From NCBI GenBank assembly GCA_030606165.1, contig JAUWGZ010000002.1:1-39231 (forward strand): DNA of 39,231 bases, written 5' to 3'. Shown here in pieces: positions 21,324 to 39,187 of the stretch. The position numbers were made by a program, and so were the translations under genes. The notes beneath the pieces were generated by a model, which saw only the letters and a program-made list of their open reading frames with translations, ran no database searches and was not told the origin of the DNA. Within the stretch, counting starts at the first letter, position 1; each line of letters opens with the position of its first letter. The DNA is from Dehalococcoidia bacterium. Lineage in GTDB: Bacteria > Chloroflexota > Dehalococcoidia > GIF9 > AB-539-J10.

Positions 21324-21367
21324 ATCGCCTGCAATAATTAGCAACAGTAAAAGATGGGGAGGTAAAA

Positions 21368-21700
21368 ATGAAAGTCGTTAGAAAAAACGAAGGTGTCGTA
21401 TACGAAGCCCCTCTACATTTCAATGTATGGAGTATCCGAAAGTTATCGGACAAGGATACTCAGAGACTCTCGGTTAGCTTATCTCACTTCCTACCTAACG
21501 GGCATGTTGATATGTCAGGCTCACCAAGTGAAAAGATGTATTATATTTTGGGTGGCAGTATGGTAGTGAAGAATAAGGCGGGAGAAGAGGCTACTCTTCA
21601 GGCTGGTGATATTGTATATTTCGCCAGTGGTGAAGAACGAGAGGGTCATATCGTTGGTAATGAAGTTTGTACTATCTTAGTGTGCATAGTAAAAAGTTAA
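21368..21700 (+). CDS. Cupin-domain protein
   Basis: 110 aa of single-barrel size, with a pattern ending ...GDIVYFASGEEREGHIVGNE. GGGGAGG RBS. Confidence 0.65.
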   Translation: MKVVRKNEGVVYEAPLHFNVWSIRKLSDKDTQRLSVSLSHFLPNGHVDMSGSPSEKMYYILGGSMVVKNKAGEEATLQAGDIVYFASGEEREGHIVGNEVCTILVCIVKS

Positions 21701-21704
21701 GGAT

Positions 21705-22664
21705 ATGATCGTGATTGAAGATATTCGTAAGATACTTGTAGTCGGTGCAGGCACGATGGGGCATGGGATTGCCCAATCATTCGCTCAAGAAGGCTATGAT
21801 GTCTCACTGTTTTCCCGTTCTGAGCAAACTCTTGACCGGGCTAAAGCATTGATCAAGTCAAGCCTGGATACTCTCGCTCAAGAAGGTATGATAGACCGTA
21901 AACAGATTCCAGCTATAACCGGATGCATCAAAATGACCCGGTCTCTAGAGGAAGGTGCCCGAGATGCTGACATAGCCTTCGAAACTGTCGTGGAAAATCG
22001 AGAATCGAAGATAGAAGTATTTAATCAATTGGACAAACTGTGTCCGTCTAAAACATTGCTAGCCAGTAATACAACCTCTTTAAATGTATTTGATTTTATC
22101 AAGACATCTCGTCCTGGTAATGTTCTTATTGCCCACTGGTATACGCCACCGCAAATTATACCGCTTGTTGATGTAGTTAAAGGTCCGGAAACCAGTGAAG
22201 ACAGTGTACAGGTAATGTTGGCTTTGCTTAAAAAGATAGGTAAAACTCCTCTCTACCTACGGAAATTCATCTCCGGCTATCTGATATCACGCTGGCAGAT
22301 TGCCAATTTACGTGATATTCTCTATTTGATTGATAATGACATTGTTACGCCAGAAGAATTAGATATGGCCGCTAAGGCGGGGTGGGCAATACGGATGATG
22401 GTTCTTGGACTAATACAGAGAATGGATTTTGGCGGCCTTGATTTATCTGTTAAAAGTCTGGATAATCCATACGTCCGCAGTCAGATGACACCGCTGGACT
22501 ACAAACCAGTAAAGGTATATGAGTTAGTTAAACAGGGACACCTAGGAATAAAGACAGGAAAAGGCTTCTATGACTACAAAGGTAAAAGTGAAGCAGAACT
22601 CTGTCAAGAACGGGACGTAAAACTTATTAAAATATTAAAAGCTTACAAAGAAATTGAGGGGTAA
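21705..22664 (+). CDS. 3-hydroxyacyl-CoA dehydrogenase family oxidoreductase; candidate 3-hydroxy-5-oxohexanoate dehydrogenase
   Basis: The Rossmann motif is ILVVGAGTMGHGIAQSFAQEG. N- and C-terminal HCDH domains are present (319 aa). Confidence 0.82.
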   Translation: MIVIEDIRKILVVGAGTMGHGIAQSFAQEGYDVSLFSRSEQTLDRAKALIKSSLDTLAQEGMIDRKQIPAITGCIKMTRSLEEGARDADIAFETVVENRESKIEVFNQLDKLCPSKTLLASNTTSLNVFDFIKTSRPGNVLIAHWYTPPQIIPLVDVVKGPETSEDSVQVMLALLKKIGKTPLYLRKFISGYLISRWQIANLRDILYLIDNDIVTPEELDMAAKAGWAIRMMVLGLIQRMDFGGLDLSVKSLDNPYVRSQMTPLDYKPVKVYELVKQGHLGIKTGKGFYDYKGKSEAELCQERDVKLIKILKAYKEIEG

Positions 22665-22752
22665 CCCGAGAAACTGGGATTGAATCTGGCGATATAGTAA
22701 GTTATAATCTGGAAACGTCAGGGAGAAGAAGGCGGTTGGATCAGTACAATCA

Positions 22753-24957
22753 ATGACCAAAGACAATAATGAACTTGATTTATTCTTTTACCCATCATCG
22801 GTGGCAATCGTAGGTGCTTCGGAAAAACTGAGTTCCTACGGTGCTAGGTATATTCAAGCCCTTCTCGACTTCGGATATAAAGGAAAAATTTACGCTGTTA
22901 ATCATACCGGCAATGAAGTCTTGGGATATAAAATATACCATAGTGTGCTAGATATCCCGGACAATGTTGATCTGGCAGCTATTTGTGTGGCAAATCATTT
23001 TGTCCCCCGAATTATACAGGATTGTGTGAACAAGAAAATTAAAGCAGCGATTGTATTAAGCGCTGGCTTTAGTGAGTCCGGTGGTGAAGGGCGTTTATTC
23101 GAAGAGGAGCTGGCAAAGATAGCCGAACAGGGTATTCGTATTATGGGGCCGAATTGCTTTGGTACATATTGCCCTAATGGCGGTATTACGATACTTCCCG
23201 GTGCTGGTCTTCCCAAACAGGGAGGGTGTACTGCTCTAATTGCACAAAGCGGTCAGCTTTCAGAGATGATAACAGCACGTTCTTTTGGTGAAGGTATCAG
23301 ATATTCAAAGGTCGCCAGTTACGGAAACGCCTGTAATATTAATGAAGCACATTTACTGGATTATCTGATTCAAGATGATGAAACAAAAATTATAATGTCT
23401 TACCTCGAGGGGGTAAGGGATGGACGCCGGTTTTTTGAAATAGCCCGTCGGAATGTCGACAAGAAACCCTTGTTGTTGTGGAAGGCAGGATTTACTAATG
23501 TTGGAGCTGCGGCAGCAAAATCCCACACTAATTCGCTGGCAGGATCCAGCATGGTCTGGGATGCTTTCTACCGCCAGACTCATGCTATTAAGATAAACAG
23601 TCTGGAAGAATTAGTAGATACTAATATTGGTTTCTCGTGTTTGCCGGCTGGTTGTGGAAGGCGGATTGCCCTTATAAGCGGAGGCGGTGCTGGTACGGTA
23701 ATTGGTGCCGATGCTGCTGAAAACGCCGGTTTAATCATGCCTCCTTTGACTCCCGACGTCGATAAGCAGTTACGTGCCATACTGCCACCAGTCGGCACTT
23801 CAATCAAAAATCCCCTCGATATCGGCTTTCCGCATCCATCATCAACAGTATTACAGTCAGTTTTGGAAACTCTAGCAGCCAGTGACCAGATTGATGTTGT
23901 GGTAATTCGCCGTATCTTCTTCTCTATCGCGGTAAGCAAAATATTTGCAGGGACAGCGGCACAGTCCGATGAAGAACAACAGGCACTTCTCGAAATACCG
24001 ATCAATATTAAGAAAAAGTACGGCAAACCGGTAATTATTATTTTGCCCGAAGAGCTGACTGGAGCCGATGCTATCAAACTGGAAGAGGAGCGGCGTACAA
24101 TTCGTGACTACTTCTTTAAGAATGGCATACCTGTTTATCCGACCGAAAACAGGGCTTTCACAGCTATAGCACATCTGGCAGATTTTAAAGATAACATGGA
24201 TAAACATTACACGGCTGAAGAAAGTATTGTTGAGAGTAAAACAACTACTTATGATACTTTCTCCAGGATAAGCAAAGCATCGGTTTCTCCCATATTAAAC
24301 GAAATTGAGTGCAAGGAAATTCTGAAAGAAGCTGGCGTTAATGTTGTAGAGACAAAACTGGCCAAAACGAGAGAGGAAGCTCTGGCTATCAGCAAGCAAC
24401 TTGGCTACCCGGTAGTGATGAAGATAATATCACCACAAATTACCCATAAATCAGATATCGGAGGCGTCAAACTGGGATTGAAAACCTCTCTACAAGTAGG
24501 CAAAGCTTATGACAGCATAATGAATGCAGTCCGGAATAAAGCTTCTGGAGCGACGATTGAAGGCGTTTCGATCCAGAAAATGGCTCCTTCAGGTGTCGAA
24601 CTGGTCATTGGCATGACTAAGGATTCCCAATTCGGTTCCATGTTGATGTTCGGTCTCGGTGGCATTTTCATTGAGGTATTAAAAGATGTTTCTTTCCGGA
24701 TCATACCATTGTCCAGAGAAGATGCCAGAGAGATGATTCGCGAGATAAAAGGTTTCCGTTTGCTGGAAGGATATAGAGGTCAGCCTCCAGTTAATATAAC
24801 CTATTTGGAAGAGCTATTACTCAAAGTATCACGATTTGTAACGGATTGCCCCCAAATTAAAGAGATAGATATTAATCCAATTATTGCTTATGCCGATGGT
24901 GCTGTGGCAGTTGATGCTCGAATTATTCTCGAACCGAATAACGTGATTTCCGGTTAG
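22753..24957 (+). CDS. ADP-forming acetyl/acyl-CoA synthetase, fused alpha-beta (CoA-binding, ligase-CoA and ATP-grasp domains)
   Basis: 734 aa. The N-terminus reads LFFYPSSVAIVGASEK and is followed by GPNCFG. The C-terminal ATP-grasp domain has GYPVVMKIISPQITHKSDIGGV. Confidence 0.85.
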   Translation: MTKDNNELDLFFYPSSVAIVGASEKLSSYGARYIQALLDFGYKGKIYAVNHTGNEVLGYKIYHSVLDIPDNVDLAAICVANHFVPRIIQDCVNKKIKAAIVLSAGFSESGGEGRLFEEELAKIAEQGIRIMGPNCFGTYCPNGGITILPGAGLPKQGGCTALIAQSGQLSEMITARSFGEGIRYSKVASYGNACNINEAHLLDYLIQDDETKIIMSYLEGVRDGRRFFEIARRNVDKKPLLLWKAGFTNVGAAAAKSHTNSLAGSSMVWDAFYRQTHAIKINSLEELVDTNIGFSCLPAGCGRRIALISGGGAGTVIGADAAENAGLIMPPLTPDVDKQLRAILPPVGTSIKNPLDIGFPHPSSTVLQSVLETLAASDQIDVVVIRRIFFSIAVSKIFAGTAAQSDEEQQALLEIPINIKKKYGKPVIIILPEELTGADAIKLEEERRTIRDYFFKNGIPVYPTENRAFTAIAHLADFKDNMDKHYTAEESIVESKTTTYDTFSRISKASVSPILNEIECKEILKEAGVNVVETKLAKTREEALAISKQLGYPVVMKIISPQITHKSDIGGVKLGLKTSLQVGKAYDSIMNAVRNKASGATIEGVSIQKMAPSGVELVIGMTKDSQFGSMLMFGLGGIFIEVLKDVSFRIIPLSREDAREMIREIKGFRLLEGYRGQPPVNITYLEELLLKVSRFVTDCPQIKEIDINPIIAYADGAVAVDARIILEPNNVISG

Positions 24958-25053
24958 TTTTGCTCTATAATATTATTTTAAAGTTTTACAAATAACTAGA
25001 AGGCTGATGATTTTAAGCAAATTGCCTTTTAAGAACGGTTTTAAACAAAGAGG

Positions 25054-25635
25054 ATGCCAAAACAAAATACTATCTGTTCTAATCCTGTCAAAAAGTATAT
25101 CGAGCAGGCCAAGTCCTTTCACGGTTATGCTGCACCAGGGATAATTATCGGGGGGTTTATGGTTGACCTTGCCTACCAGCATCTACCTGAAGGAGTCCTG
25201 CTCGATGCCATCAGTGAGACACAAGTCTGTCTACCGGATGCCTTGCAATTGCTGACTCACTGTACTGTAGGCAACGGCTGGCTTAAAGTTATCGATTTAG
25301 GCCGTTTTGCGTTGACTCTTTACGACCCGAATAACGGTAACGGTATCAGGGTCTATGTAAATCCGGCCAAACTTGAAAAATGGCCGGAAATAAAGAACTG
25401 GTTCTTTAAACTGGTACCCAAAAAAGAGCAGGATACACAACGATTAATGAAACAGATACAGGAAGCCGGGTCTGATATTTGTGATTATGAAAAGGTAAAA
25501 GTTAAACTCAATAAGGTGACTAAGAAGCACCACTCCAATCTTGGTATCTGCTCGCGCTGTAAAGAGTCATACCCGGTAGCGGACGGGGATGTATGCCTCG
25601 GCTGTCAAGGTAAAGCCCCTTATCTAAACAAATGA
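25054..25635 (+). CDS. FmdE-family protein with C-terminal 4-Cys zinc ribbon
   Basis: An FmdE-like N-domain (FHGYAAPGIIIGGFMVD...GNGW) plus CSRC...CLGC at the C-terminus. Confidence 0.7.
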   Translation: MPKQNTICSNPVKKYIEQAKSFHGYAAPGIIIGGFMVDLAYQHLPEGVLLDAISETQVCLPDALQLLTHCTVGNGWLKVIDLGRFALTLYDPNNGNGIRVYVNPAKLEKWPEIKNWFFKLVPKKEQDTQRLMKQIQEAGSDICDYEKVKVKLNKVTKKHHSNLGICSRCKESYPVADGDVCLGCQGKAPYLNK

Positions 25636-25675
25636 TTAAGAATAAGCCCGGATCTCATCACAAAAGGAGTGAACA

Positions 25676-28180
25676 ATGTCAGAGAAAGTATTTATTAACT
25701 GTACCGGCGGCGGACCGATTCGGGTACATGTGAAAAACGGCAAGATCACTCGTGTCCGGCCGTTAGTCTTTGATGAGAATGATGCTCCTTCCTGGACTAT
25801 AGAAGCTGGAGGGCAAAAATTCACCCCGCCTAGGAAGGCCTGTGTAGCCTCCTTTGCTCTTACCGAAAAGGAAAGAGTATATTCTAAGGACAGAATCTTA
25901 TATCCGTTAAAGCGTGTTGATTTCGATCAGAATGGCGAAAGACACCCGGAAAACAGAGGCAAATCGGGTTATGAGCGAATCAGTTGGGATGAAGCCATAA
26001 ATATCGTCTCCGGCGAGATGAAACGAATCAGAAGTGCTTACGGACCGGAGGCTATAGTATCCCGGGGTTCTTCTCATCACAACTGGGGTAATGTCGGTTA
26101 CCGGAGCAGTACCTGGGCACGGTTTTTCAACTTAATCGGTTTCACTGACATTTTAGATAATCCCGACAGCTGGGAAGGCTGGCATTGGGGAGCTCCCCAT
26201 GCTTACGGTTTTTTCTGGCGTCTGGGTAATCCCGAGCAATACGACCTGTTAGAAGACGCCCTGAAAAACACTGAAATGGTTATATATTGGAGCAACGACC
26301 CCGATTCCACCCACGGCATTTACGGCGGTAACGAATCAGCCCTATGGCGTATCTGGATGAGAGACCTGGGGATTAAACAGGTCTTTCTCGATCCCTACTG
26401 TAACTATACGGCGGCGATTCACAGTGAAAAATGGATTGCTTACCGGCCGGGTACGGAAACAGCTCTGGCGATGGCCATTGCCTATGTGTGGTTAACAGAA
26501 GATACCTATGACAAACAATATATCGAGACCCATTCTCTCGGATTCGATGAATTTAAAAGCTATATCCTGGGTAAAGAAGACGGCGTAGCCAAGACCCCGG
26601 AATGGGCTGCTGAAATTTGTGATGTACCCGCGCGTAATATCATTGCTTTAGCCAGAGAATGGGCATCCAAGAGGACAATGCTATCCAGCGGCACTAAAGG
26701 CGGCGAGGGCGGTGCCTGCCGGCAGGCTTACGCTACTGAATGGGCGAGAATGATGGTTTTCCTGGCAGCGATGCAGGGAATGGGTAAACCGGGGTCCAAT
26801 ATCTGGGGTACTACGCTGGGTCCTCCCTTTAACGCTACACTTGATTTTCCCGGTTATGCCCAGGGCGGCATCAACAGGTTAGCCAAAAAACCGGCGGTTA
26901 ATCCGGTGAAACAGCGTATTTACCGCTTACTGCTGCCCGAAGCTATTCTGAATCCCCCGATTAAATGGATGGGAGATGGTTTCTGCGGCAACTCGATTGA
27001 ACAACAGTTTAACAAATATGTATATCCCCTGCCCGGCTGTTCCGAAGTCAAAATGTTTTACCGCTACGGCGGCGCTTTCATTGCCACAATGACCGAGACT
27101 AACCGATGGGTCAGGATGTACCAGAGCCCTAAGTTAGAATTTGTGGTTAATCAGGACTGCTGGTGGTGCACCGAGACTAAATTTGCTGACATCATCCTAC
27201 CCGCCTGTACAAACCTGGAACGTAACGACATCAGCGAATGGGCCAGCGCTGGTGGGTATTCCGTACACGGAGCCGGTGCTTGTAATCACCGAGTTATCGT
27301 TTACCAGCAGAAATGTGTCGAGCCGGTCGGCGAATCAAAATCAGATTATCAGATTTTCTGCGAATTGGCGGAAAGGCTTGGAGTAAAAGAGGAGTTTACG
27401 GAGGGTAACACCGAGGAAGACTGGATCAAGATAATGTTCGATTCATCCGACCTTCCAAAGTATATCTCATTCGAAGAATTTAAGAAAAAAGGCTATTATA
27501 TCGTACCCCAGCTGGAAAATTATAAACCGACGCCCTCCCTGCGCTGGTTCTATGAAGGCCGGGAATGCGATACGCCGGACCTCGGTAATGCCAAGAGGAA
27601 TACCGAAAAAGGGAAAGAGCTGGGCACTTACTCCGGCAAACTCGAGTTTGTCTCGCAAAGCTTGTTGAAGCACACCCCGGATGATGACGAAAGACCGCCG
27701 CTGGTTCATTACATTCCGAGCTGGGAAGGGCATCAATCCGACCTGGCGAAGAAATATCCGCTGCAGCTTATTTCGCCTCATCCACGCTATTCCTTCCACA
27801 CCCAACATGATTCTCACGTGCCGTGGCTGTCTGATATACCAGGCCACCGGATCTGGAAAGACGGGTATGATTATCAGGTAGTACGTATACATCCGACTGA
27901 TGCGGCCACCAGAGGTATTCAAAATAACGATATCGTGAAGCTATATAACGATAGAGGTGCCGTGTTGTTAATCGCCCGGATTACAGAAAGAATCAGGCCA
28001 GGCGTAGTGCATTCGTGCGAAGGCTCCGCTAAATACGACCCGCTCGAACCGGGTAAAGCCGGCAGTATCGACCGGGGGGGTTGCATCAATGTGCTCACAC
28101 CTTCCCGGATGCTCTCAAAGAACGTACCGGGAATGGCACCTAACTCATGTCTAGTCGAAGTATCCAAGTGGGAAGTTTAA
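25676..28180 (+). CDS. Pyrogallol-phloroglucinol transhydroxylase-like molybdopterin (bis-MGD) oxidoreductase, large subunit, copy 1
   Basis: 834 aa with no N-terminal Fe-S Cys motif. SSHHNWGNVGYR, DNPDSWEGWHWG, RLGNPEQYDLLED, ADIILPACTN and DRGGCINVLTP match my recollection of the Pelobacter acidigallici large subunit nearly residue for residue. Confidence 0.88.
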   Translation: MSEKVFINCTGGGPIRVHVKNGKITRVRPLVFDENDAPSWTIEAGGQKFTPPRKACVASFALTEKERVYSKDRILYPLKRVDFDQNGERHPENRGKSGYERISWDEAINIVSGEMKRIRSAYGPEAIVSRGSSHHNWGNVGYRSSTWARFFNLIGFTDILDNPDSWEGWHWGAPHAYGFFWRLGNPEQYDLLEDALKNTEMVIYWSNDPDSTHGIYGGNESALWRIWMRDLGIKQVFLDPYCNYTAAIHSEKWIAYRPGTETALAMAIAYVWLTEDTYDKQYIETHSLGFDEFKSYILGKEDGVAKTPEWAAEICDVPARNIIALAREWASKRTMLSSGTKGGEGGACRQAYATEWARMMVFLAAMQGMGKPGSNIWGTTLGPPFNATLDFPGYAQGGINRLAKKPAVNPVKQRIYRLLLPEAILNPPIKWMGDGFCGNSIEQQFNKYVYPLPGCSEVKMFYRYGGAFIATMTETNRWVRMYQSPKLEFVVNQDCWWCTETKFADIILPACTNLERNDISEWASAGGYSVHGAGACNHRVIVYQQKCVEPVGESKSDYQIFCELAERLGVKEEFTEGNTEEDWIKIMFDSSDLPKYISFEEFKKKGYYIVPQLENYKPTPSLRWFYEGRECDTPDLGNAKRNTEKGKELGTYSGKLEFVSQSLLKHTPDDDERPPLVHYIPSWEGHQSDLAKKYPLQLISPHPRYSFHTQHDSHVPWLSDIPGHRIWKDGYDYQVVRIHPTDAATRGIQNNDIVKLYNDRGAVLLIARITERIRPGVVHSCEGSAKYDPLEPGKAGSIDRGGCINVLTPSRMLSKNVPGMAPNSCLVEVSKWEV

Positions 28181-28184
28181 GCAA

Positions 28185-29021
28185 ATGACAAGATACGGAA
28201 TGGTTATCGACATTACCCGGTGTAACGGGTGTTATAACTGCTTCATCGCCTGCCGTGACGAGTATTGCGGCAATGACTATCCTCCGTATTCGGCGGCGCA
28301 ACCCGATAAAGGCTCTTTCTGGATAAAAATTATCGAGAAAGAGCGGGGGAAATACCCCCATCCGGTAGGAGTAGCTTACACTCCAATACTCTGCCAGCAT
28401 TGTGATGAAGCTAATTGTGTTAAAGCCGCTAAAAACGGGGAGATTTACCGCCGCGAAGACGGCATAGTCATTATCGACCCTGAGAAATCAAAAGGGAAGA
28501 AAGAATTAATGTCCGCCTGCCCTTACCGGGTCATCTACTGGAACGACGAAAAAAATATACCCCAAAAATGCACCTTCTGTGCCCATTTGCTTGATGCCGG
28601 CTGGAAAGAACCCCGGTGTGTCGAAGCCTGCCCCACGGCCGCTTTAAAGTTCGGCGACTTGGACGATCCGAACAGTGAAGTCGCCAAACTCGTTGCTGCG
28701 GGCAAGGTCGAAATACTGCATCCCGAATACAATATGAAAGAAAAGGTAAGCTATATCGGTTTACCGAAGCGGTTTATCGCCGGCACGGTAGTCTTCGGCG
28801 ATACGGATGAATGTGCGGATAAGGTCACCGTAACCATCAGTGACGGACAGGAAAAGGAAACGTTAAAGACCAATAATTATGGTGATTTTGAGTTAGACGG
28901 GCTGCCATCCAATAAAGAATATACCGTTAGAATCAGCTATACCGGTTACAAACCGCAAACATTTAAAGTCTTCACCAGAGACGATGTATGTATGGGCGAT
29001 ATATTTTTGACCCGTAAATAG
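28185..29021 (+). CDS. Transhydroxylase-like small subunit, copy 1 (3x[4Fe-4S] ferredoxin domain plus C-terminal beta-sandwich)
   Basis: 278 aa. The Cys motifs are CNGCYNCFIAC, CQHCDEANC, CPYRVI and CTFCAHLLDAGWKEPRCVEACP. The C-terminal region is carboxypeptidase-regulatory-like (TVTISDGQ...YTVRISYTGYKPQTF). Confidence 0.88.
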   Translation: MTRYGMVIDITRCNGCYNCFIACRDEYCGNDYPPYSAAQPDKGSFWIKIIEKERGKYPHPVGVAYTPILCQHCDEANCVKAAKNGEIYRREDGIVIIDPEKSKGKKELMSACPYRVIYWNDEKNIPQKCTFCAHLLDAGWKEPRCVEACPTAALKFGDLDDPNSEVAKLVAAGKVEILHPEYNMKEKVSYIGLPKRFIAGTVVFGDTDECADKVTVTISDGQEKETLKTNNYGDFELDGLPSNKEYTVRISYTGYKPQTFKVFTRDDVCMGDIFLTRK

Positions 29022-29107
29022 CTATGGTCATTATAAATAAGCACACCAGTAATTCTGTTTACTCACGGAAGCGATATTTCATTGCTTTCAAATAAAAGGA
29101 ATTAGTA

Positions 29108-31702
29108 TTGGCAAAAAAAGTGAGGCAGGAAAAGGACGGCGGCAAAACTATCATCAAAGGACTGGGGTTTTGTTCTATCGCCGCCGACAGTAACACCGTT
29201 CAAATAGAGATTAAGGACGGTAAGATTGTCCGCATCCGGCCTCTTCATTACGACTGGAAATATAAGAATCTCAAACCCTGGAAAATAGAAGCCCGGGGTA
29301 AAACTTTCCAACCCCAGATGAAATCGCTCATCCCCCCTTACAGCCTCGGTTATAAAAATCGGGTTTTTTCACCCAACCGGGTGCCCTATCCAATGAAAAG
29401 GGTGGATTGGGATCCACAGGGGGAAAGGAATCCGCAAAACCGGGGTACCAGTAAATATGTCCGGATTAGCTGGGAAGAAGCCTTAGATATCATTGTCAGC
29501 GAAATCAAACGGATCAGGCAGCAGTATGGCATGGAAGCCATTCTCTCCCAGTCGGACGGACATGGTGAAACGATGGCGATAAATGCGGCCCACGGCTGCC
29601 ACCGCAAGCTCCTGCGGTTATTAGGCGGTTATACGCTGCAAACCCGGAATACGGACAGCTGGGAAGGCTGGTACTGGGGTGCCAAACATGTCTGGGGTTG
29701 CGAGAATCTTGGTCAGATGACTCCAGTCACTAACGTTATCTCTGATGTATCTAAAAACACGGATGCCATCTTTTTCTGGGGCTGCGACCCGGAGACGACT
29801 CCCTGGGGCTTCGACGGCCAGTTAGCCAGTCGGTTATGTTACTGGTTTACGGAAATCGGGATTAAGTCTATCTACGTCAGCCCGGATTTGAATTACGGGG
29901 CGGCTGTCCATAGCGATAAATGGATTCCGATACTGCCCAATACGGATGCCGCATTATACCTCGCCATCGCTTACGTCTGGATGACGGAAGGTAGCTACGA
30001 TAAAGAATATGTAAAAACACATACCAAGGGTTTCGAAAAATTCCAGGACTACGTTCTCGGTAAAGAAGATGGCGTTCCCAAAACACCTAAATGGGCGTCC
30101 CCTATAACCGGCATACCGTCTTACACTATCAAAGCACTAGCCATATACTGGAGCAAGCATAGGGTCAGTTTTGCGATAGGTAATGGAGGGCCCGGTATCC
30201 GGGGACCTTACGCTACGGAACCGGCCAGGCTCCAAATTTTGCTGCTAGCGATGCAAGGCGTTGGCAAACCCGGCGTCCACCAGTTTAAGATGATCGAATG
30301 GGGTCTCTATAATAAGAAAACGAATATTCCTCTCCCCCATCCGAAATACGTACCGGATTTATCAGATGTCCAGCGAGGCTGGCGTTATACGGATACACCC
30401 CGTCAGTTCATCCCTAAAAATAAGATTCATGACGCCATTCTGCGGCCCCCGTTAAAATGGTATGGCACTACTCTTTCCCGCGACTCTACCGACCAGCAAT
30501 TTATTCCTTATCAATATCCTTTACCTGATAGCACAGAGATACACATGATATGGACGGACAGTCCTTCTTGGATGAGTTGCTGGACCGATACCAACGATTT
30601 CGTCCGGGCGCTAAGAAGTCCGAAGATAGAATTTGTCTTAGCCCAGCACCCATGGTTTGAAAATGATTGTCTGTTGGCAGACATAGTATTGCCATCGATT
30701 ACCAAGATGGAGTGCGATGATATTGGTGTCGAAACTATGAGCGGACAGTTTTATATGGCATATCCCGAGCCTAAGGCCATCGAACCGCGGGGAGAAGCAA
30801 AGAGCAATTACCAGATTGTGTGTGATATCGCCGCCAGATTTAATCTGCTCGAAGAATATACCGATGGTAAAAGCCCTGAGGAATGGATTAGAGCCGGTTA
30901 TGAGGCCTCTGGTGTCGCGAAATATATTAGCTGGGAAGAGTTCAATAAGAAAGGCTATTATATCGTTCCCAACGATGAACATTGGCAGGAACAGAAAGCC
31001 GGTTTGGCCGCTTTTTACGAGGATCCGGGGAATAATCCTTTAGAAACTCCCAGCGGTAAAATCGAGTTCTATTCTGAGAGACTGGCCGTTAATTTCCCCG
31101 CTGATAACGAGCGGCCTCCGGTCCCGCACTGGATACCTTCCGGGGCTACTCATCAGGAGAGTCTGCATTCCGATAGAGCAAAGGAATATCCTTTACTGGT
31201 GGAATCCAATCATCCCCGCTGGCGGGTTCATTCCCAGCATGACGATATGACCTGGACGCGGGAAATCCATACCTGTAAAGTCAGAGGCCAGGATGGCTAT
31301 TTATATGAGCCGGTCTGGCTTAATCCGATAGTTGCCGGAGCACGGCATATTAAAGATGGCGATGTGGTTAAAATATACAATGAACGCGGGGCCCTGCTGG
31401 CCGGTGCCTGGGTTACCGAAAGAATCCGGCCGGGTGTCGTTTATATCGACCACGGCAGCCGGTGGGACCCCATCATACCCGGCGAACTGGATAGAGGCGG
31501 GGCAATTAATACCATCACGCCCCATAATACTACCTCTAAAAACGCCAGCGGCATGGTTTGCAGCGGCTTTTTAGTGGAGGTGGCCGGCGTCGATCTGGAA
31601 GCGTTGAAAAAAAAGTATCCGGAAGCTTTTAACCGTCCCTATGACAACATTGCCGGGCTTGTAGTAGAACGCGTTTTACACGGAGAAAAAAGCCGTGGGT
31701 AA
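29108..31702 (+). CDS. Transhydroxylase-like molybdopterin oxidoreductase large subunit, divergent copy 2
   Basis: 864 aa, collinear with copy 1 (NTDSWEGWYWG, ADIVLPSITK, DRGGAINTITP) but with diverged active-site-proximal segments. TTG start with AAGGA 8 nt upstream; GTG 29120 is an alternative. Confidence 0.85.
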   Translation: MAKKVRQEKDGGKTIIKGLGFCSIAADSNTVQIEIKDGKIVRIRPLHYDWKYKNLKPWKIEARGKTFQPQMKSLIPPYSLGYKNRVFSPNRVPYPMKRVDWDPQGERNPQNRGTSKYVRISWEEALDIIVSEIKRIRQQYGMEAILSQSDGHGETMAINAAHGCHRKLLRLLGGYTLQTRNTDSWEGWYWGAKHVWGCENLGQMTPVTNVISDVSKNTDAIFFWGCDPETTPWGFDGQLASRLCYWFTEIGIKSIYVSPDLNYGAAVHSDKWIPILPNTDAALYLAIAYVWMTEGSYDKEYVKTHTKGFEKFQDYVLGKEDGVPKTPKWASPITGIPSYTIKALAIYWSKHRVSFAIGNGGPGIRGPYATEPARLQILLLAMQGVGKPGVHQFKMIEWGLYNKKTNIPLPHPKYVPDLSDVQRGWRYTDTPRQFIPKNKIHDAILRPPLKWYGTTLSRDSTDQQFIPYQYPLPDSTEIHMIWTDSPSWMSCWTDTNDFVRALRSPKIEFVLAQHPWFENDCLLADIVLPSITKMECDDIGVETMSGQFYMAYPEPKAIEPRGEAKSNYQIVCDIAARFNLLEEYTDGKSPEEWIRAGYEASGVAKYISWEEFNKKGYYIVPNDEHWQEQKAGLAAFYEDPGNNPLETPSGKIEFYSERLAVNFPADNERPPVPHWIPSGATHQESLHSDRAKEYPLLVESNHPRWRVHSQHDDMTWTREIHTCKVRGQDGYLYEPVWLNPIVAGARHIKDGDVVKIYNERGALLAGAWVTERIRPGVVYIDHGSRWDPIIPGELDRGGAINTITPHNTTSKNASGMVCSGFLVEVAGVDLEALKKKYPEAFNRPYDNIAGLVVERVLHGEKSRG

Positions 31703-32525
31703 AGTACTGATTATCGATATTACGAAGTGCAACGGCTGTCACAACTGCCAGATTGCCTGTAAAGATGAACATTGCGGTAATGACTGGAGTCCCATTGCGA
31801 AGCCCCAGCCACTCAGCGGCCAGTTCTGGATCGGGGTCGTCGATGTAGTACGAGGTACCGTACCCAAGGTTAAAGTAGCTTATAACCATATTATCTGCCA
31901 GCATTGTGATGATGCCCCCTGCATTAAAGCCTGTCCCAATAAAGCTATTTATAAGAGACCGGACGGCATTGTCATTATCGACCCCTTAAAATGCAAAGGC
32001 GCCGGGGACTGTATAAAAGAGTGCCCTTACGAGGGTGTTATCTTCTTTAATAAAGAACTTAATATTTCCCAGAAATGTACTTTTTGCGCTCATCTGATTG
32101 ACAAGGGCTGGCAAGAACCCCGGTGTGTCGATGCCTGTCCTACCGGAGCTCTTACGTTCGGCGAGGGAGCAGAATTGCGGGACTTAATCAGTAAGGCTGA
32201 AGTACTCAAACCCGAGATAGGTGTTAAACCCAGGGTTTACTATATTGGCATTCCTAAAAGGTTCATCGGCGGCACTATTTATAACCCCGAACTCGATGAG
32301 GTGGTAATTGGAGCTGAGGTAAATCTTCAAAATGAAGATGACGGAATAAGTATTTCTTGTAAGGCCGATGATTTCGGGGACTTCTGGGTAGATGGTTTAT
32401 CACCCGGGAAATATCTGGTGACTATTAAGAATAGCGGCTATATTCATAAAGAACTGAAAGCGGATATTACCGAAAAAGATATCAATCTAGGCGATATCGC
32501 TTTAGTAAGAAATAAATCTGTTTAG
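31695..32525 (+). CDS. Transhydroxylase-like small subunit, copy 2
   Basis: 276 aa with the same Cys motifs (CNGCHNCQIAC, CQHCDDAPC, CPYEGV, CTFCAHLIDKGWQEPRCVDACP) and the same C-terminal beta-sandwich. The GTG start overlaps the alpha2 stop by 8 nt. Confidence 0.85.
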   Translation: MGKVLIIDITKCNGCHNCQIACKDEHCGNDWSPIAKPQPLSGQFWIGVVDVVRGTVPKVKVAYNHIICQHCDDAPCIKACPNKAIYKRPDGIVIIDPLKCKGAGDCIKECPYEGVIFFNKELNISQKCTFCAHLIDKGWQEPRCVDACPTGALTFGEGAELRDLISKAEVLKPEIGVKPRVYYIGIPKRFIGGTIYNPELDEVVIGAEVNLQNEDDGISISCKADDFGDFWVDGLSPGKYLVTIKNSGYIHKELKADITEKDINLGDIALVRNKSV

Positions 32526-32539
32526 TTACGGGGAATCAT

Positions 32540-32842
32540 TTGAGAGCAATTGTAAATTTAATGTCAAAACGGGCAATAACGCTTAGCGGTTGGCGGGCCA
32601 AAGCTATTCAAATAAACGGTAAAAACGAGGCATCGTTAAGCGAAATATTGCAAGCCGCTACGCTTAAAGACGGCCGCAGTATGCTTGACTTGATTACGGA
32701 AAAAGACCGCCTGAGGGATGACTGGTCTCTTTATGTGGATGGCTTTTCACTACCGGGTTCCTCCAGCATCAAGAAAACCGTAAAAGATAACGTGCAGATT
32801 CATGTTCTAGATCGTCCATCCATCAAAGTTAAGGATTTCTAA
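32540..32842 (+). CDS. Small hypothetical protein (93-100 aa), possibly beta-grasp (ThiS/MoaD-like) but without a C-terminal GG
   Basis: It begins 14 nt after beta2. The pattern ...LYVDGFSL...VKDNVQIHVLDRP is reminiscent of MoaD/ThiS-like folds. The start is ambiguous (TTG 32540 or ATG 32561). Confidence 0.4.
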   Translation: MRAIVNLMSKRAITLSGWRAKAIQINGKNEASLSEILQAATLKDGRSMLDLITEKDRLRDDWSLYVDGFSLPGSSSIKKTVKDNVQIHVLDRPSIKVKDF

Positions 32843-33052
32843 ACAACGTCTAACACCATACCGGTAGCATGATTACCATGCTGGAGCAGTCGTTTTTGTG
32901 TAGCAGCCTGGACTTAATCTGACATTTCGAATACATTGACACAGAACCAGAAAAGAAATGTCGGACCTATATCAACCTGATTGTTTAAAAATTGAATAGT
33001 TTTCAGGTTGATTCCAGCTTTGGGAAAAGGCCGGCATCCTGAAAAATATCAA

Positions 33053-33102
33053 CATGACTTTTGATCAGGGTGTCACAGGTTCGAATCCCGCACGGCTCAC
33101 CA
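33053..33102 (+). pseudogene. 3' fragment of a tRNA-Lys(UUU)-like gene (anticodon arm to CCA); no 5' half
   Basis: The elements are CATGA-CTTTTGA-TCAGG (anticodon arm), GTGTC, ACAGG-TTCGAAT-CCCGC (T-arm, 3 of 5 pairs), ACGGCTC, A and CCA. No complementary GAGCCGT acceptor strand or D-arm lies upstream. Confidence 0.5.
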
Positions 33103-33339
33103 TGCTTAACGAAAGATAGAACTCCTACACGATGGCCTATTCAGGTCTGAAATCCGTAAGTGCAATATTGAATTAGACATGATTGTTCCGCCTATATATA
33201 ATATGTTCAGGTTTGATATGGCAAGTAGATTCTTGGTCATGCGATCCCAGCAGCAAACGATAGAAGTAACTGACGGGAGAAACCGTATTTATTGTAGATG
33301 CCCGCAAAGGATAATAAAGTACTCTTAAAGGAGACGATC

Positions 33340-34638
33340 ATGACAATTCAGGAAAAATACAAAACCAAACTCCGTACCCTTGAGGAATGCGTCAGGTTTA
33401 TTCAAAACGGCGACAGCATCATAACGTCCGGCGCTGCAGGCGAACCATGCGTGTTTCTACGGAGTATTCCGGAATGGGCACATGGCGTGGAGGGAGTCAC
33501 TATACACAAAAGCCGTGAGCAGATGTTCGATTACCTTCGGGATCCGACATTGAAGGGTCATATACATACCGTCGGTCACTTTTTTTCCGAGAACCTTCGT
33601 GAGGGTTATCAGATAGGCACGTGTAGTTATGTGCCCTCCGAGCTGCACAATTTCATGACCATTCGTGGCCAAGTCAGCCTTGACAAGATATTCTGGGCCA
33701 GGACTACTGCTATGGAAAAGGATGGTAATTTCTGCATCCCCTATTGCCAGATGTTCGAATACGAGGCCATGCAAAATGCTAGCCACATAATACTGGAGGT
33801 CAACTTAAACCCGAAGTATGCCCCGGTGCGCGGTGCCTGCCGCATCCCTATTGATCGCGTCGATATGCTTTACGAGGTCAACGAGCCTCTGTTTATTCTG
33901 CCCAAGTTTGTCAGCACGGAGAGAGACGAGAAGATAGGGTCCTATATTGCCTCTCTCATACACGATGGCGACTGTATTCAGCTTGGACTCGGTGGACTTC
34001 CCGACGCCGTGGCTCACCACTTGATGGACAAGAATGACCTCGGCATGCATAGTGAGATGTTCTCCCCATCGATGGCGATAATGATAGAGGCCGGCGTCAT
34101 CACCGGGAAGGTCAAGAACCTCAATAGAGGCGAACATATCGCTACCTTTATACTTGGCGATGAGAACCTATATCGCGTGGCTTCGGAGGATAAAAACTTC
34201 CGCCTCGTCCCTTGTAGCTATGGCAATGACCCCAAAGTTATCGCCCAGAACGACAACATGGTGTCCACAAATACTTTGCTTGAAATCGATCTCACCGGTC
34301 AGATCAACTCCGAATCTATCGGGGCTCTCCAGTGGAGCGGTACGGGCGGCGCTGACGACTATGCCATAGGCGCAATGCACTCCAAAGGTGGTCGTGGCAT
34401 ATTTGCCTTTGAATCCACCACCAGGAAGGGCATTTCTAAGATTAAGTCCACCTTTGCCCCGGGCTCGGTTGTATCTGTATCAAGGAACCACGTGGACATC
34501 CTCGTGACCGAATACGGATTCGTTAGTCTGCGAGGTAAGACGGTGCCCCAGCGAGTAGAAGCCATCATCTCCATTGCCCATCCCGACTTCCGGGCAGACT
34601 TGCGTGCCGAGGCTAAGAAGCTGAAATACATTGATTAG
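33340..34638 (+). CDS. Acetyl-CoA hydrolase/transferase family protein (4-hydroxybutyrate/butyryl-CoA:acetate CoA-transferase-like)
   Basis: About 432 aa from ATG 33340, with AAAGGAGA RBS. The family pattern includes ...GLGGLPDAV..., MHSEMF and SGTGGADDY. The ORF-track start at 33298 lacks an RBS. Confidence 0.82.
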   Translation: MTIQEKYKTKLRTLEECVRFIQNGDSIITSGAAGEPCVFLRSIPEWAHGVEGVTIHKSREQMFDYLRDPTLKGHIHTVGHFFSENLREGYQIGTCSYVPSELHNFMTIRGQVSLDKIFWARTTAMEKDGNFCIPYCQMFEYEAMQNASHIILEVNLNPKYAPVRGACRIPIDRVDMLYEVNEPLFILPKFVSTERDEKIGSYIASLIHDGDCIQLGLGGLPDAVAHHLMDKNDLGMHSEMFSPSMAIMIEAGVITGKVKNLNRGEHIATFILGDENLYRVASEDKNFRLVPCSYGNDPKVIAQNDNMVSTNTLLEIDLTGQINSESIGALQWSGTGGADDYAIGAMHSKGGRGIFAFESTTRKGISKIKSTFAPGSVVSVSRNHVDILVTEYGFVSLRGKTVPQRVEAIISIAHPDFRADLRAEAKKLKYID

Positions 34639-34685
34639 CAATAAAATCGTCGTAAAGACAACAGCCGGTCACGGTTTACGGAGCA

Positions 34686-35831
34686 CTAGTGATGCCTCAG
34701 GAGCTGTCTGGCAATAGTTAACCGCTGCATCTCGTCGGTACCATCAAAGAGTCCTACAACTCTGGCATCGCGGAAGTAGCGTTCTACGGGATAGTCTTTA
34801 ATATAACCATAGCCACCATGTATCTGAACAGCCTTGGTAGTCACGAACGCGGCTGCCTCAGCGGCAAAGAGCTTGGCCATGGACGACTCTTTTATGCAAG
34901 GTAACCCGTTATCCTGGCGATGAGCTGCCCGATAGATTAACAGCCGGGCAGCATCAATCTGTGTCGCCATATCAGCTAACATCCATTGAATTGCCTGAAA
35001 GTTAGCAATAGGCTGGCCAAACTGCTTGCGCTCCTGGGCATAAGCCAGTGCCTTATCAAACGCTCCTCGGGCAATACCTAGCCCAGTAGCGGCGGCATTG
35101 GGCCGGCAAGCATCTAGAGTAGAAAGTGCTATTCTCAAACCTTGTCCCTCATCGCCCAGCCGATTTTCCGCGGGCAAAAAACAATCTTCGAATATTAACT
35201 CGGTTGTCGGTGAACCTCTGACGCCCATCTTATGCTCAAGTCTGCCCACCGAGAAACCAGGGGTGCCTTTCTCAACGATAAAGCACGTGATGCCCCGATG
35301 CCGCAGTGACTTATCAACAGTGGCAAAGACCAAGGTAATATCAGCCATGCTGCCCTGGCTGATAAAGATCTTGGTGCCGTTAAGTATATAGCCGTTCTTA
35401 TGCCGGGTAGCAGTAGTTTCCATGGCAGCAATATCACTACCGGCGCCGGATTCAGTTATAGCGAAAGTGCCTAGTTTCTCACCCTTGGCTATCGGGACCA
35501 CAAAGCGTTGCCTTTGCTCCTCATTACCATACTTATACAGCGGAACCCCGGCAAGTCCTATGCTTCCATTAATAATGATGGCGGCGCTGGCACAGACACG
35601 AGCCAGCTCTTCATTGAGAATAGCCCTTTCGATTGCCCCGCCCCCAGTACCACCATATTGTTCAGGGAATCCGATACCAAACAAGCCAAGCGCAGCCGCC
35701 TTTTTGAGGTTCTCAGCAGGGTATCTAGCTTCCTCATCAATTTGGGCAGCAATTGGCTCAAGCTCTTTAACGGCGAAGTCTCGTACCAATGTTTGAAGCA
35801 TCTTTTGGTCTTCACTGAACTCAAAGTCCAT
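34686..35831 (-). CDS. Acyl-CoA dehydrogenase
   Basis: MDFEFSEDQKML is a typical ACAD N-terminus, and the C-terminus reads YEGTDEMQ-like GTDEMQRLTIARQL. There is a GAGG RBS before ATG 35831. A TTGACC-17-TATAAT promoter lies inside the longer ORF-track version, so the start at 35918 is rejected. Confidence 0.9.
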   Translation of the reverse strand: MDFEFSEDQKMLQTLVRDFAVKELEPIAAQIDEEARYPAENLKKAAALGLFGIGFPEQYGGTGGGAIERAILNEELARVCASAAIIINGSIGLAGVPLYKYGNEEQRQRFVVPIAKGEKLGTFAITESGAGSDIAAMETTATRHKNGYILNGTKIFISQGSMADITLVFATVDKSLRHRGITCFIVEKGTPGFSVGRLEHKMGVRGSPTTELIFEDCFLPAENRLGDEGQGLRIALSTLDACRPNAAATGLGIARGAFDKALAYAQERKQFGQPIANFQAIQWMLADMATQIDAARLLIYRAAHRQDNGLPCIKESSMAKLFAAEAAAFVTTKAVQIHGGYGYIKDYPVERYFRDARVVGLFDGTDEMQRLTIARQLLRHH

Positions 35832-35879
35832 ATTCGCCTCAAAATTCTCCGCTATGCAGCATTTTAATACGGGCGCCAT

Positions 35880-35908
35880 ATTATAGCGTCGCACCCATCG
35901 AGGGTCAA
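35880..35908 (-). promoter_or_regulatory. Promoter of the acyl-CoA dehydrogenase gene (-35 TTGACC, 17 nt, -10 TATAAT on minus strand)
   Basis: The plus-strand sequence is attata at 35880-35885 and ggtcaa at 35903-35908. Confidence 0.5.
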
Positions 35909-36443
35909 GCCTCCACATCCCATGGGTATTGATAGATCAGTGGCATAGGGAATATAATCAATTGCGTCCGCATAGTGCTCTAGGATACCGGCCTCCGGCA
36001 CCTGAGGCTATACTGACTATGACTTAACAATTGGTATCATTATTGGGGGCAGGACAAGAGACGTAGGGACAACTGGTGAAATCTCTGCCCTAACGGGGAG
36101 AAAAGTGGCCGAAAGAGCCGGCAAAGAAAGAGGAATAGAAAGGAGCGAGTATTATGACGGTGTCCATTTGGAAATCCACGGCCAGGTTTAAGAATAAAGC
36201 TAGCATAATTCGATTCGTTAGCTTTGTCAATTTTGTCGATAAAAACATAGCCCTGCCAGCGAGTCGTACGACACGCTATATGGCTGGTCAATTGACAACC
36301 TTCCTGACTTGTGGGCAGGTATGTAGTAGTTTGTCTCAATCAAGGTGTCTCGCCAGTATTACTAGGTGGTTGGCGACTTAAACGCGTCTCCCACTGCTGG
36401 GTTGTTCGTTATTAAATTCCTGTTAGAAGTTAAGGGGGTAAAG

Positions 36444-38484: not shown

Positions 38485-38596
38485 CACTGCAAAGTCAAAA
38501 CGAACGTAAGCTCAAAAGTTCTGTCTACCGTTTGCCGAGGCCCGGCCTTTCTTGAAGTTCAATAGCGATTACCTCAAAGAGAGGAGCAGAGTCAAG

Positions 38597-39187
38597 ATGC
38601 CGAAGCTCCCGGTAGCTGAGAGGAGCTTAGATGTTGAGGATGCTCTTGGTCTGAGTTCGGGTGAGATTGAAGGAGAGGCAAATCGCTGCTTCAATTGCGG
38701 CTGTGTTTCGGTGCACCCCTCGGATATGGGCGTAGTGCTCTTAGCTTTGGGTGCACAGGTAAAGATTGCCGGACCAGGAGGCACCAGGACAATCCCAATT
38801 GAAAAGTTCTTCGGCTCCTTGAGGAATACCCTCGAAGCGGATGAGATGGTAACCGAAATCCAAGTTCCTCAGCCGCCAGATGGAGCCAAGCAAACATTCT
38901 TCAAATTCAGACTACGGGAGTCCGTTGATTTCCCCATCGTCAGCGTCGCATCGGTCATCACTATTGACGGCGGAGTTTGCCAAGACGCGAGGATAGCCCT
39001 AGGAGCAGTTGCCCCAGCACCAGTCCGGGCAACCATGGTGGAACAGGCAATCAAGGGAAAGGCCATCAATGCTGCGACGGCAGAATCGGCAGCGGAGGCA
39101 GCGATCACAGGTGCAATACCACTCGCCAAGAACGCATACAAAGTCGAGATAACAAAAACACTGGTAAAAAGAGCCATACTCGCCTAG
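38597..39187 (+). CDS. Truncated CoxM/XdhB-like medium (FAD) subunit of a molybdopterin (xanthine dehydrogenase family) enzyme with GltD-like N-terminal Cys motif
   Basis: PSDMGVVLLALGAQVKIAGPGGTRTIPIEKFF and the CO-dehydrogenase-flavoprotein C-terminal pattern (RESVDFPIVSVA...IALGAVAPAPVR...YKVEITKTLVKRAIL) are present. GAGAGGAG RBS lies before ATG 38597; the ORF track uses TTG 38552. Confidence 0.68.
   Translation: MPKLPVAERSLDVEDALGLSSGEIEGEANRCFNCGCVSVHPSDMGVVLLALGAQVKIAGPGGTRTIPIEKFFGSLRNTLEADEMVTEIQVPQPPDGAKQTFFKFRLRESVDFPIVSVASVITIDGGVCQDARIALGAVAPAPVRATMVEQAIKGKAINAATAESAAEAAITGAIPLAKNAYKVEITKTLVKRAILA

Follow-up and report, generated by a model that had tools for sequence, protein, structure and literature searches.

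Positions 29108-32842 of the DNA analyzed here hold, by sequence comparison, a three-gene unit, alpha2-beta2-gamma, of the pyrogallol transhydroxylase/resorcinol hydroxylase (AthL/PgtL-RhL) branch within the dimethyl sulfoxide (DMSO) reductase superfamily. This DNA, hereafter the window, is the whole of a 39,231-nt stretch of contig JAUWGZ010000002.1 (assembly GCA_030606165.1) from a Dehalococcoidia bacterium, and it also carries the related pair alpha1/beta1. The data suggest that these three genes make up a real and functional variant of the transhydroxylases, whose pocket and electron-transfer complement both differ and which is embedded in polyphenol catabolism. Our preferred reading, which we hold at about even chances, is that it encodes a cytoplasmic molybdenum-bis(molybdopterin guanine dinucleotide) (Mo-bisMGD) enzyme that hydroxylates or dehydroxylates a polyhydroxy-aromatic compound in a net redox reaction, exchanging electrons with a partner; the module probably prepares another plant phenol for the phloroglucinol breakdown pathway. 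A first-pass annotation of this DNA had described a second alpha/beta pair; the pair stands but its extent does not, as a conserved third gene carries the unit to 32842. That annotation had missed the third gene, the fourth iron-sulfur (Fe-S) cluster site of beta2, and the status of alpha2 as part of an orthologous group of its own.

Relationship of the Module to Transhydroxylases

alpha1 and alpha2 shared 41% identity over 831 aa (E = 0), and beta1 and beta2 49% identity (E = 3e-91), a likeness far above chance. The best solved match for all four proteins was the Pelobacter acidigallici transhydroxylase (PDB 4v4c), whose A chain was matched by alpha1 with 960 bits and by alpha2 with 491 bits (E = 7e-146), and whose B chain was matched by beta2 with 168 bits (E = 1.7e-48); the common architecture of the two pairs, as proposed earlier, was borne out. 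In agreement, alpha2 exceeded the cut-offs of the Pfam families PF21423 (AthL-like first domain), PF00384, and PF01568, and its AlphaFold (AF2) model (predicted local distance difference test, pLDDT, 82; predicted template modeling score, pTM, 0.86) retrieved 4v4c_A first in Foldseek, with a template modeling (TM) score of 0.84, followed by DMSO and trimethylamine N-oxide (TMAO) reductases at 0.77-0.79. As in the P. acidigallici enzyme, alpha2 showed neither a twin-arginine translocation (Tat) motif nor an N-terminal Fe-S cysteine cluster (FS0); the two also share the AthL-like N-terminal domain, the Ser ligand of the DSWEGW motif, and a His144 equivalent, while both beta subunits have a C-terminal immunoglobulin (Ig)-like domain and both systems are linked to phloroglucinol catabolism. 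However, alpha2 is just 34-40% identical to that enzyme.

Homologue names at the Joint Genome Institute (JGI), 'S/N-oxide reductase-like' and 'TMAO reductase', and the best NCBIfam match of alpha2, TIGR00509 (bisC_fam), would suit an S- or N-oxide reductase of the DMSO/TMAO/biotin sulfoxide type. Nevertheless, the score against TIGR00509 was 393 bits versus a cut-off of 1017, those against TorA NF011682 and TIGR02164 were 300 versus 909 and 288 versus 1465, respectively, and DMSO/TMAO reductases were matched with at most 270 bits versus the 491 of the transhydroxylase. Moreover, the AthL-specific N-terminal domain and the transhydroxylase-type beta with its Ig-like domain argue against such an enzyme. 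We ranked this explanation, together with that of a decaying pseudo-enzyme, as extremely unlikely.

Decay of the second copy, which the first-pass annotation had raised, was rejected, since full-length orthologues occur across phyla, the MGD-binding domains are intact according to Pfam, the open reading frames (ORFs) are unbroken, and few non-synonymous changes separate alpha2 from its counterpart in a Dehalococcoidales metagenome-assembled genome (MAG) contig (L001, CSMAG_2233; 99% identity to the window, identical gene order). In this comparison, alpha2 showed 13 synonymous and 4 non-synonymous differences (ratio of non-synonymous to synonymous differences per site, pN/pS, 0.09), and gamma 4 of each kind (pN/pS 0.29). 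The sole difference in beta2 was a 1-nt indel within the last five codons, at window position 32505 and at about 11954 in L001; the protein ends in ...ALVRNKSV in the window and in ...ALGKK in L001. The module is intact and under purifying selection. The longer N-terminus and TTG start noted earlier for alpha2 held up as well: the start is credible because AAAGGA lies upstream and orthologues start at the same position (mostly with ATG, some with TTG or GTG), and these share a K/R-rich N-terminal extension followed by an RGLGFCS motif. The start of beta2 (M/V-GKV...IDITKC) also agrees with its orthologues.

Phylogeny and Distribution of the alpha2 Family

In a protein search with alpha2, more than 120 clusters reached 61% identity or more, and 6056 had E <= 1e-30, none of them specifically named; the relatives came from Chloroflexota, Actinomycetota, Spirochaetota, and Desulfobacterota. 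Scanning species-representative genomes gave 592 relatives, including multi-copy arrays in Dehalococcoidia and Actinomycetota, and the best 80 of these 592 were all at least 51% identical to alpha2. When plasmids were searched with tblastn, the matches reached at most 36% identity and were labelled 'molybdopterin-dependent oxidoreductase' or TorA. In a neighbor-joining (NJ) tree of 79 sequences with 100 bootstraps, the alpha2 orthologous group and the transhydroxylase family (P. acidigallici and alpha1) were each monophyletic in 100/100 replicates. The former spans at least four phyla (Actinomycetota, Spirochaetota, Desulfobacterota, and Chloroflexota); orthologues in other phyla are about 70-77% identical to alpha2, and 70-83% identical in the case of alpha1. 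These results suggested that the alpha2 family is a very large, uncharacterised sister family of the transhydroxylases, in keeping with the separate clade proposed in the first-pass annotation; our literature search found no paper that characterises the alpha2 clade, a four-cluster beta, or gamma. The old duplication suggested there stood as regards an ancient split but not as a local event: because alpha2 has its own orthologous group, orthologues in other phyla, and a recurring side-by-side synteny with alpha1, the two genes appear to represent ancient, horizontally mobile paralogous families that have repeatedly been placed together.

Loci of Dehalococcoidia and Actinomycetota (L009, L012, L019, L021, L103, L112, L123) were observed to hold arrays that reach four or five family genes, in which alpha2-type/alpha1-type/beta1 sets are repeated at about 60-66% identity to the window genes; several of the alpha2-type genes in them have no adjacent beta. 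The MAG from which the window derives holds at least three further family genes (L024, L027). In addition, alpha2-family genes 52-58% identical to alpha2 were found in gut Coriobacteriia (L049-L080; Gordonibacter, Raoultibacter, Adlercreutzia, Ellagibacter) and in some Firmicutes (L035, L042, L044 from Sporomusa acidovorans, L046). These appear to be uncharacterised and distinct from the known catechol dehydroxylases of Coriobacteriia (Dadh, Cldh, Hcdh, and others), which are Mo-bisMGD enzymes that remove ring hydroxyls of polyphenols with external electrons and have a clade of their own close to acetylene hydratase (PMC7028382); the genes related to alpha2 in Coriobacteriia (52-56% identical) are another set. 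The identification of alpha2 itself as such a gut dehydroxylase was rejected, as it matched acetylene hydratase (2e7z) with E = 1.3e-15 versus 7e-146 for the transhydroxylase and falls in another clade.

Active Site and Substrate Pocket

In the P. acidigallici structure, Ser175 reportedly ligates Mo, Asp174, His144, and Tyr404 are said to be catalytic, and Tyr404, Arg153, and nearby aromatic residues to shape the site of the tetrahydroxybenzene co-substrate. Pocket columns of the alignment were mapped onto the 4v4c numbering, with H144, D174, S175, W176, W354, Y404, C557, and Y560 falling on the expected letters (Table 1). The Asp-Ser pair of DSWEGW was confirmed in the translations where it had been placed before, at residues 164-165 of alpha1 (nt 26165) and 183-184 of alpha2 (nt 29654), and the D, S, W, E, and W of the motif are invariant in the transhydroxylase family and the alpha2 family alike. 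The His144 equivalent that had been claimed for alpha2 is His152 by alignment (nt 29561-29563), within the family-specific pocket segment DGHGETMAINAAHG, and the four divergent segments quoted in the first-pass annotation were all present in the translations.

Table 1. Pocket positions (4v4c numbering) in the two families
Position	Transhydroxylase/alpha1 clade	alpha2 family
H144	Conserved	Kept (His152)
H145, W147	Conserved	Gone through a 2-residue deletion
Y152	Conserved	A/G/S (A in alpha2)
R/K153	Conserved	A/P/T (A in alpha2)
H154	Variable outside P. acidigallici, which has H; S in alpha1	Conserved
D174, S175, W176, E177, W179	Conserved	Kept
W354	Not constant: W in P. acidigallici, E in alpha1	N, inside a 4-residue deletion
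Y404	Conserved	L/V/I, within a loop rich in indels
C557-Y560 segment	Y560 conserved	Deleted

The proposal of a changed substrate pocket was sustained by these columns, which are strongly remodeled in the alpha2 family relative to 4v4c. alpha2 lacks every residue conserved solely in the transhydroxylase clade (H145, W147, Y152, R153, Y404, and Y560), and its differences from the P. acidigallici enzyme extend to W354 and the whole C557-Y560 stretch; a DGH--GET...H..HG signature, conserved throughout the alpha2 family, replaces the lost segment. H144, H145, W147, Y152, R153, D174, S175, W176, Y404, and Y560 are all kept in alpha1, and alpha1/beta1 is expected to be the pyrogallol-to-phloroglucinol enzyme. 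The alignment suggests, then, that the Mo-proximal triad stays in alpha2 while all the transhydroxylase-clade-specific residues are gone. A redundant isoenzyme with the same activity as alpha1/beta1 would be compatible with the overall architecture and Mo-ligand motif that the pairs share and with their location in one cluster, but alpha1 and alpha2 are just 41% identical, and the clade-wide pocket residues are all changed in alpha2 even though P. acidigallici, 54% identical to alpha1 in the trimmed multiple alignment, keeps them. Since the Fe-S content also differs and an extra subunit is predicted, we considered such redundancy very unlikely.

The Fourth Fe-S Cluster Site of beta2

The four-cluster ferredoxin subunits of the DMSO reductase superfamily hold four cysteine groups, and in EbdB (ethylbenzene dehydrogenase), PcrB (perchlorate reductase), and NarH a non-Cys residue at position III-2 goes with a [3Fe-4S] distal cluster that hands electrons to a partner subunit. 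In beta2, cysteines were found at II-4, III-1, III-3, and III-4, and the III-2 position is Ala103, giving a [3Fe-4S]-type motif, C-K-G-x3-C-x3-C-P. The stretch LKCKGAGDCIKECPY of beta2 aligned, residue by residue, with ERCKGHRHCVEACPY in EbdB and DKCKGAQACVQSCPY in PcrB, whose group III motif we take to be their [3Fe-4S] FS4 cluster site; EbdB, PcrB, and NarH all read C-K-G-x3-C-x3-C-P-Y with a non-Cys second position, as beta2 does. In agreement, besides the Fer4_11 and CarboxypepD_reg domains of beta2, the Pfam families Fer4_6 and Fer4_2 matched its residues 92-116, and neither was found in beta1. Overall, however, beta2 is much closer to the transhydroxylase beta than to these three proteins, from which it also differs by its Ig-like C-terminal domain and by having no haem gamma subunit or membrane anchor encoded nearby.

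Cysteines II-4, III-1, III-2, and III-3 are absent from the P. acidigallici beta, from beta1, and from every beta beside an alpha1-family gene, so that these proteins would bind only three clusters. Those at II-4, III-1, III-3, and III-4 are present in all beta2 orthologues and in most environmental alpha2-family betas, with C, S, A, N, or D at III-2. This comparison suggested that a fourth cluster site, of the [3Fe-4S] type, is retained in beta2 and was lost from the transhydroxylase beta. Our main argument is built on this site: since it is kept across phyla and lost in the redox-neutral transhydroxylase, alpha2-beta2-gamma would exchange electrons with a partner. We regard the site as the strongest clue towards a non-transhydroxylase chemistry.

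The Product of the Third Gene

Conservation of gamma was assessed in 15 non-redundant loci, defined by an alpha with 67% or more identity to alpha2 (the window, L002-L006, L026, and L081-L088), and the gene was found 3' of beta2 in 13 of them; its product begins with MRAIVN, as do the homologues at this place in orthologous loci. In one of the 13, from a Thermoleophilia MAG (L083), gamma continues in frame from the end of beta2, so that the fusion forms one ORF of 402 aa, and a gamma profile had no other matches in 166 loci. Pfam gave no match, and for the MoaD/ThiS-type families none even at E up to 10, and the single match among PDB sequences, a MoaD-like protein, was not significant (E = 0.41). 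Nonetheless, a structure predicted from database homologues (AF2, pLDDT 91) matched SAMP1, MoaD, Urm1, and CysO in Foldseek, with TM scores of 0.6-0.7 and a probability of 1.0, and gamma is therefore modeled as a beta-grasp fold, as in the MoaD/ThiS/SAMP/Urm1/CysO proteins. It differs from these in that its gene follows one for an Fe-S subunit, to which it is joined in a single case, and in lacking a C-terminal Gly-Gly, its C-termini being variable (KVKDF, MVDS, SKH). As it has neither this Gly-Gly nor a conserved Cys, gamma is neither a sulfur carrier nor an Fe-S protein. Its strict linkage to beta2 and the one fusion speak for a third component, a putative subunit or dedicated accessory of beta2; the P. 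acidigallici transhydroxylase is an alpha-beta enzyme, whereas this module has a conserved third gene, whose product is only putatively in physical association with the others.

Synteny of the Module

Phloroglucinol-pathway genes adjoin the module in six of the 15 orthologous loci (the window, L004, L082, L086, L087, L088), and an alpha1-family gene shares the locus in seven (the window, L081, L082, L084, L086, L087, L088). Phloroglucinol clusters with an alpha1-type pair also hold alpha2-type genes that are 53-63% identical (L092, L151). Near the module we found ATP-binding cassette (ABC) transporters with Peripla_BP_6 (L002, L003, L083, L086), major facilitator superfamily (MFS) transporters (L082, L085), recurring regulators of the GntR, IclR, and sigma-54 types, and, in L026, L081, and L086, a flavin mononucleotide/flavin adenine dinucleotide (FMN/FAD) flavoprotein of the Old Yellow Enzyme (OYE) type, a possible NAD(P)H-linked partner.

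These loci bear on a special case of our preferred reading, namely that the module would convert pyrogallol or phloroglucinol plus water into 1,2,3,5-tetrahydroxybenzene and so supply alpha1/beta1 with its co-substrate, for which, to our knowledge, no in vivo source has been described. In the window and L086 the module directly follows alpha1/beta1 on the 3' side, in L082, L087, and L088 it belongs to the same cluster, a Thermoleophilia genome has orthologues of both alphas, though on separate contigs (L083 and L169), and a four-cluster beta would fit an oxidative hydroxylation. Against such a role, L167-L169 hold alpha1 orthologues and, within 10 kb of them, no alpha2-type gene, the module of L004 is accompanied by phloroglucinol genes and by no alpha1-type gene within 20 kb, and the transporters and regulators of many orthologous loci suggest an imported growth substrate. 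We therefore considered dedicated co-substrate supply quite unlikely; the context is a better fit for an extra imported phenolic substrate entering the phloroglucinol funnel than for an obligatory helper of the transhydroxylase.

In L081 (10001-18205) and L087 (3393-12474), a third type of pair was observed between alpha2 and beta2-gamma, composed of an alpha of about 890 aa, 51-52% identical to alpha1, and a beta of the three-cluster type; L081 also holds two small ORFs, of 130 and 151 aa, neither of them matched by Pfam. An FmdE gene stands beside transhydroxylase-type genes in the window and also in L004 (11529-12104), L082 (21845-22435), L092, and L151, which are from unrelated lineages, and the FmdE-like protein is a candidate for a factor dedicated to the maturation or assistance of Tat-less transhydroxylase-type Mo enzymes.

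Proposed Function

Under our preferred reading of a net redox enzyme, a polyhydroxylated aromatic would bind in the cytoplasm at Mo by way of Ser184, Asp183, and His152. No phenolic co-substrate would serve as hydroxyl donor; instead, a net two-electron reaction would take place, either a water-dependent ring hydroxylation, as in resorcinol hydroxylase, or a reductive dehydroxylation, of which the catechol dehydroxylases would be a functional analogue. The four clusters of beta2 would act as a wire carrying electrons to, or from, a soluble partner, with gamma as a subunit that sits on beta2 in a structural or docking role. The product, which could be phloroglucinol, pyrogallol, or 1,2,3,5-tetrahydroxybenzene, would enter the phloroglucinol pathway directly or via alpha1/beta1, the likely pathway partner of the module. 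More tentatively, and with clearly less confidence, alpha2-beta2-gamma might be the first example of a widespread class of Mo enzymes, cytoplasmic and with three subunits and four clusters, for the net redox (de)hydroxylation of polyhydroxybenzenes, possibly the long-missing source of 1,2,3,5-tetrahydroxybenzene or an enzyme by which hydroxyhydroquinone- or resorcinol-type phenols enter the fermentative phloroglucinol pathway, with gamma as a new beta-grasp subunit docked on the distal [3Fe-4S] cluster.

The type of chemistry suggested by the four-cluster beta2 is that of RhLS, the resorcinol hydroxylase of Azoarcus anaerobius, and DbhLS, the 3,5-dihydroxybenzoate hydroxylase of Thauera aromatica AR-1, which are water-dependent and pass electrons to an acceptor. 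Both belong to the RhL/PgtL family, in which two activities have been characterised (PMC10100899), and they were compared here by description only. They were absent among the best 80 genome loci, and their hosts are nitrate-respiring Betaproteobacteria, not fermenters with a phloroglucinol pathway.

The main rival is a genuine co-substrate-dependent transhydroxylase that uses another donor/acceptor pair and acts in series with alpha1/beta1. An example would be the route of Pelobacter massiliensis, which is said to proceed from hydroxyhydroquinone to phloroglucinol by sequential transhydroxylations; this route figures in the reference list of PMC3971608. Family and fold are shared with the transhydroxylase, the module is repeatedly in tandem with a transhydroxylase-type pair and phloroglucinol genes, and diverged alpha2-type and alpha1-type sets also recur jointly (L009, L025, L027, L092, L151). 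Moreover, the alpha2-family enzymes of Coriobacteriia and Firmicutes carry three-cluster, transhydroxylase-like betas. Nevertheless, such an enzyme would have to work with all the transhydroxylase-clade-only residues lost, and it would leave aside the fourth cluster site, which is under selection in all orthologues, and the extra subunit; in addition, no P. massiliensis locus was among the best 80 of the 592 genome matches. We therefore regarded this explanation as unlikely, although it deserves more weight than the other alternatives.

Several points weigh against the net redox enzyme that we prefer. Four clusters are the ancestral state of the beta family, so retention of the fourth shows constraint and neither the direction of electron flow nor the partner, and no redox partner is encoded beside the module in the window. 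The three-cluster betas of Coriobacteriia and Firmicutes, paired there with an alpha2-type pocket, indicate that pocket type and fourth cluster are not strictly linked. Furthermore, Y404 was aligned in a loop full of indels, where its place could be taken by another Tyr of that loop, the catalytic and co-substrate roles ascribed to Y404, R153, Y560, and W354 of the transhydroxylase serve as a lead rather than a test, and gamma has no conserved Cys or recognisable cofactor site.

The identity of the reaction matters beyond this locus, as only two or three enzymes of the transhydroxylase/resorcinol hydroxylase family have been studied. Multiple 'pyrogallol hydroxytransferase' operons have been reported in sediment Chloroflexota without being told apart, and homologues from these and other anaerobes are routinely given that label and used to infer pyrogallol fermentation (PMC3971608, PMC4959651). 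Most such homologues appear to fall in the sister family with a different pocket, in which one defined orthologous group has an extra Fe-S cluster site and an extra putative subunit and is tied to phloroglucinol clusters. Once identified, the reaction would correct a widespread annotation and define a new polyphenol entry into anaerobic carbon turnover, which bears on carbon in peat and sediments and on the suppression of methane by polyphenols, and it might tell where the transhydroxylase co-substrate originates.

Gene Layout and Other Features of the Window

The coordinates of the genes and sites are given in Table 2. The 8-nt overlap of alpha2 and beta2 and the 4-nt gap between alpha1 and beta1, both reported previously, agree with these coordinates, and beta2 and gamma are 14 nt apart.

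Table 2. Genes and sites of the module and its surroundings in the window
Feature	Position	Strand	Remarks
alpha2, predicted Mo-bisMGD catalytic subunit, AthL/PgtL-like	29108-31702	+	864 aa, TTG start; from ORF list and translation
Family-specific pocket segment of alpha2	29555-29602	+	From alignment columns; holds His152
DSWEGW motif of alpha2, Asp183-Ser184	29654-29671	+	Ser184 is the predicted Mo ligand, equivalent to Ser175
beta2, Fe-S subunit with C-terminal CarboxypepD_reg (Ig-like) domain	31695-32525	+	276 aa, GTG start
Cysteines of the putative fourth (distal) Fe-S cluster of beta2	31932-32024	+	C80 (II-4), C100 (III-1), C106 (III-3), C110 (III-4)
gamma (orf100), predicted MoaD/ThiS/SAMP-like beta-grasp protein	32540-32842	+	100 aa, TTG start
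alpha1, canonical pyrogallol-phloroglucinol transhydroxylase-type alpha	25676-28180	+	834 aa
beta1, transhydroxylase-type beta, partner of alpha1	28185-29021	+	278 aa
FmdE-like protein with zinc ribbon (treble clef), directly 5' of alpha1	25054-25635	+	Pfam PF02663, PF23475
Phloroglucinol degradation genes, 5' of both pairs	18889-24957	+	Pfam and NCBIfam matches

The phloroglucinol gene set comprises a beta-keto acid cleavage enzyme (BKACE) of the triacetate lyase type, a cyclase, a short-chain dehydrogenase/reductase (SDR) of the phloroglucinol reductase type, a cupin, a 3-hydroxyacyl-CoA dehydrogenase type protein, and an ADP-forming acyl-CoA synthetase, and genes of these types belong to the anaerobic phloroglucinol pathway (PMC10470551). 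On the 3' side, the module is followed by a butyryl-CoA:acetate CoA-transferase-like gene, an acyl-CoA dehydrogenase gene, and genes for more CoA-transferase subunits. A scan of 24900-33400 for promoters and terminators gave no more sites than shuffled sequence and is silent on operon boundaries.

We also considered the cluster as a genomic island between tRNA-Ser (16186-16277) and a tRNA-like 3' fragment, GGTTCGAATCC...CACCA, at 33069-33104, inside the 455-nt gap 3' of gamma. This was rejected, as the two are 81% identical over 21 nt that represent a generic T-arm only; the fragment is not an att duplicate, and neither ARAGORN nor Rfam called it. A gene for a MobA/MocA-like nucleotidyltransferase (NTP_transf_3, 16531-17121), situated between tRNA-Ser and the phloroglucinol genes, is broken by one in-frame TAA (16789-16791) into an N-terminal (16531-16791) and a C-terminal (16813-17121) half, and it represents either a pseudogene or an assembly error.

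Near the end of the window, at 38552-39187, a gene for an FAD subunit of the xanthine dehydrogenase family begins, and in the Spirochaetes locus L004 genes for [2Fe-2S] and Mo subunits of the xanthine dehydrogenase superfamily (3846-6642) lie just 5' of the alpha2 orthologue; this second type of Mo enzyme may be part of polyphenol clusters. Genes for an electron-transfer flavoprotein (ETF), an acyl-CoA dehydrogenase, and the butyryl-CoA:acetate CoA-transferase-like protein are located at 4278-6096 and 33298-35918 of the window, and alpha1 orthologues of two MAGs (L167, L169) are organized in LysR/acyl-CoA dehydrogenase/alpha1/beta1 units beside genes for ETF and ETF-quinone oxidoreductase (ETF-QO). 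This context is consistent with a butyrate branch of phloroglucinol fermentation.

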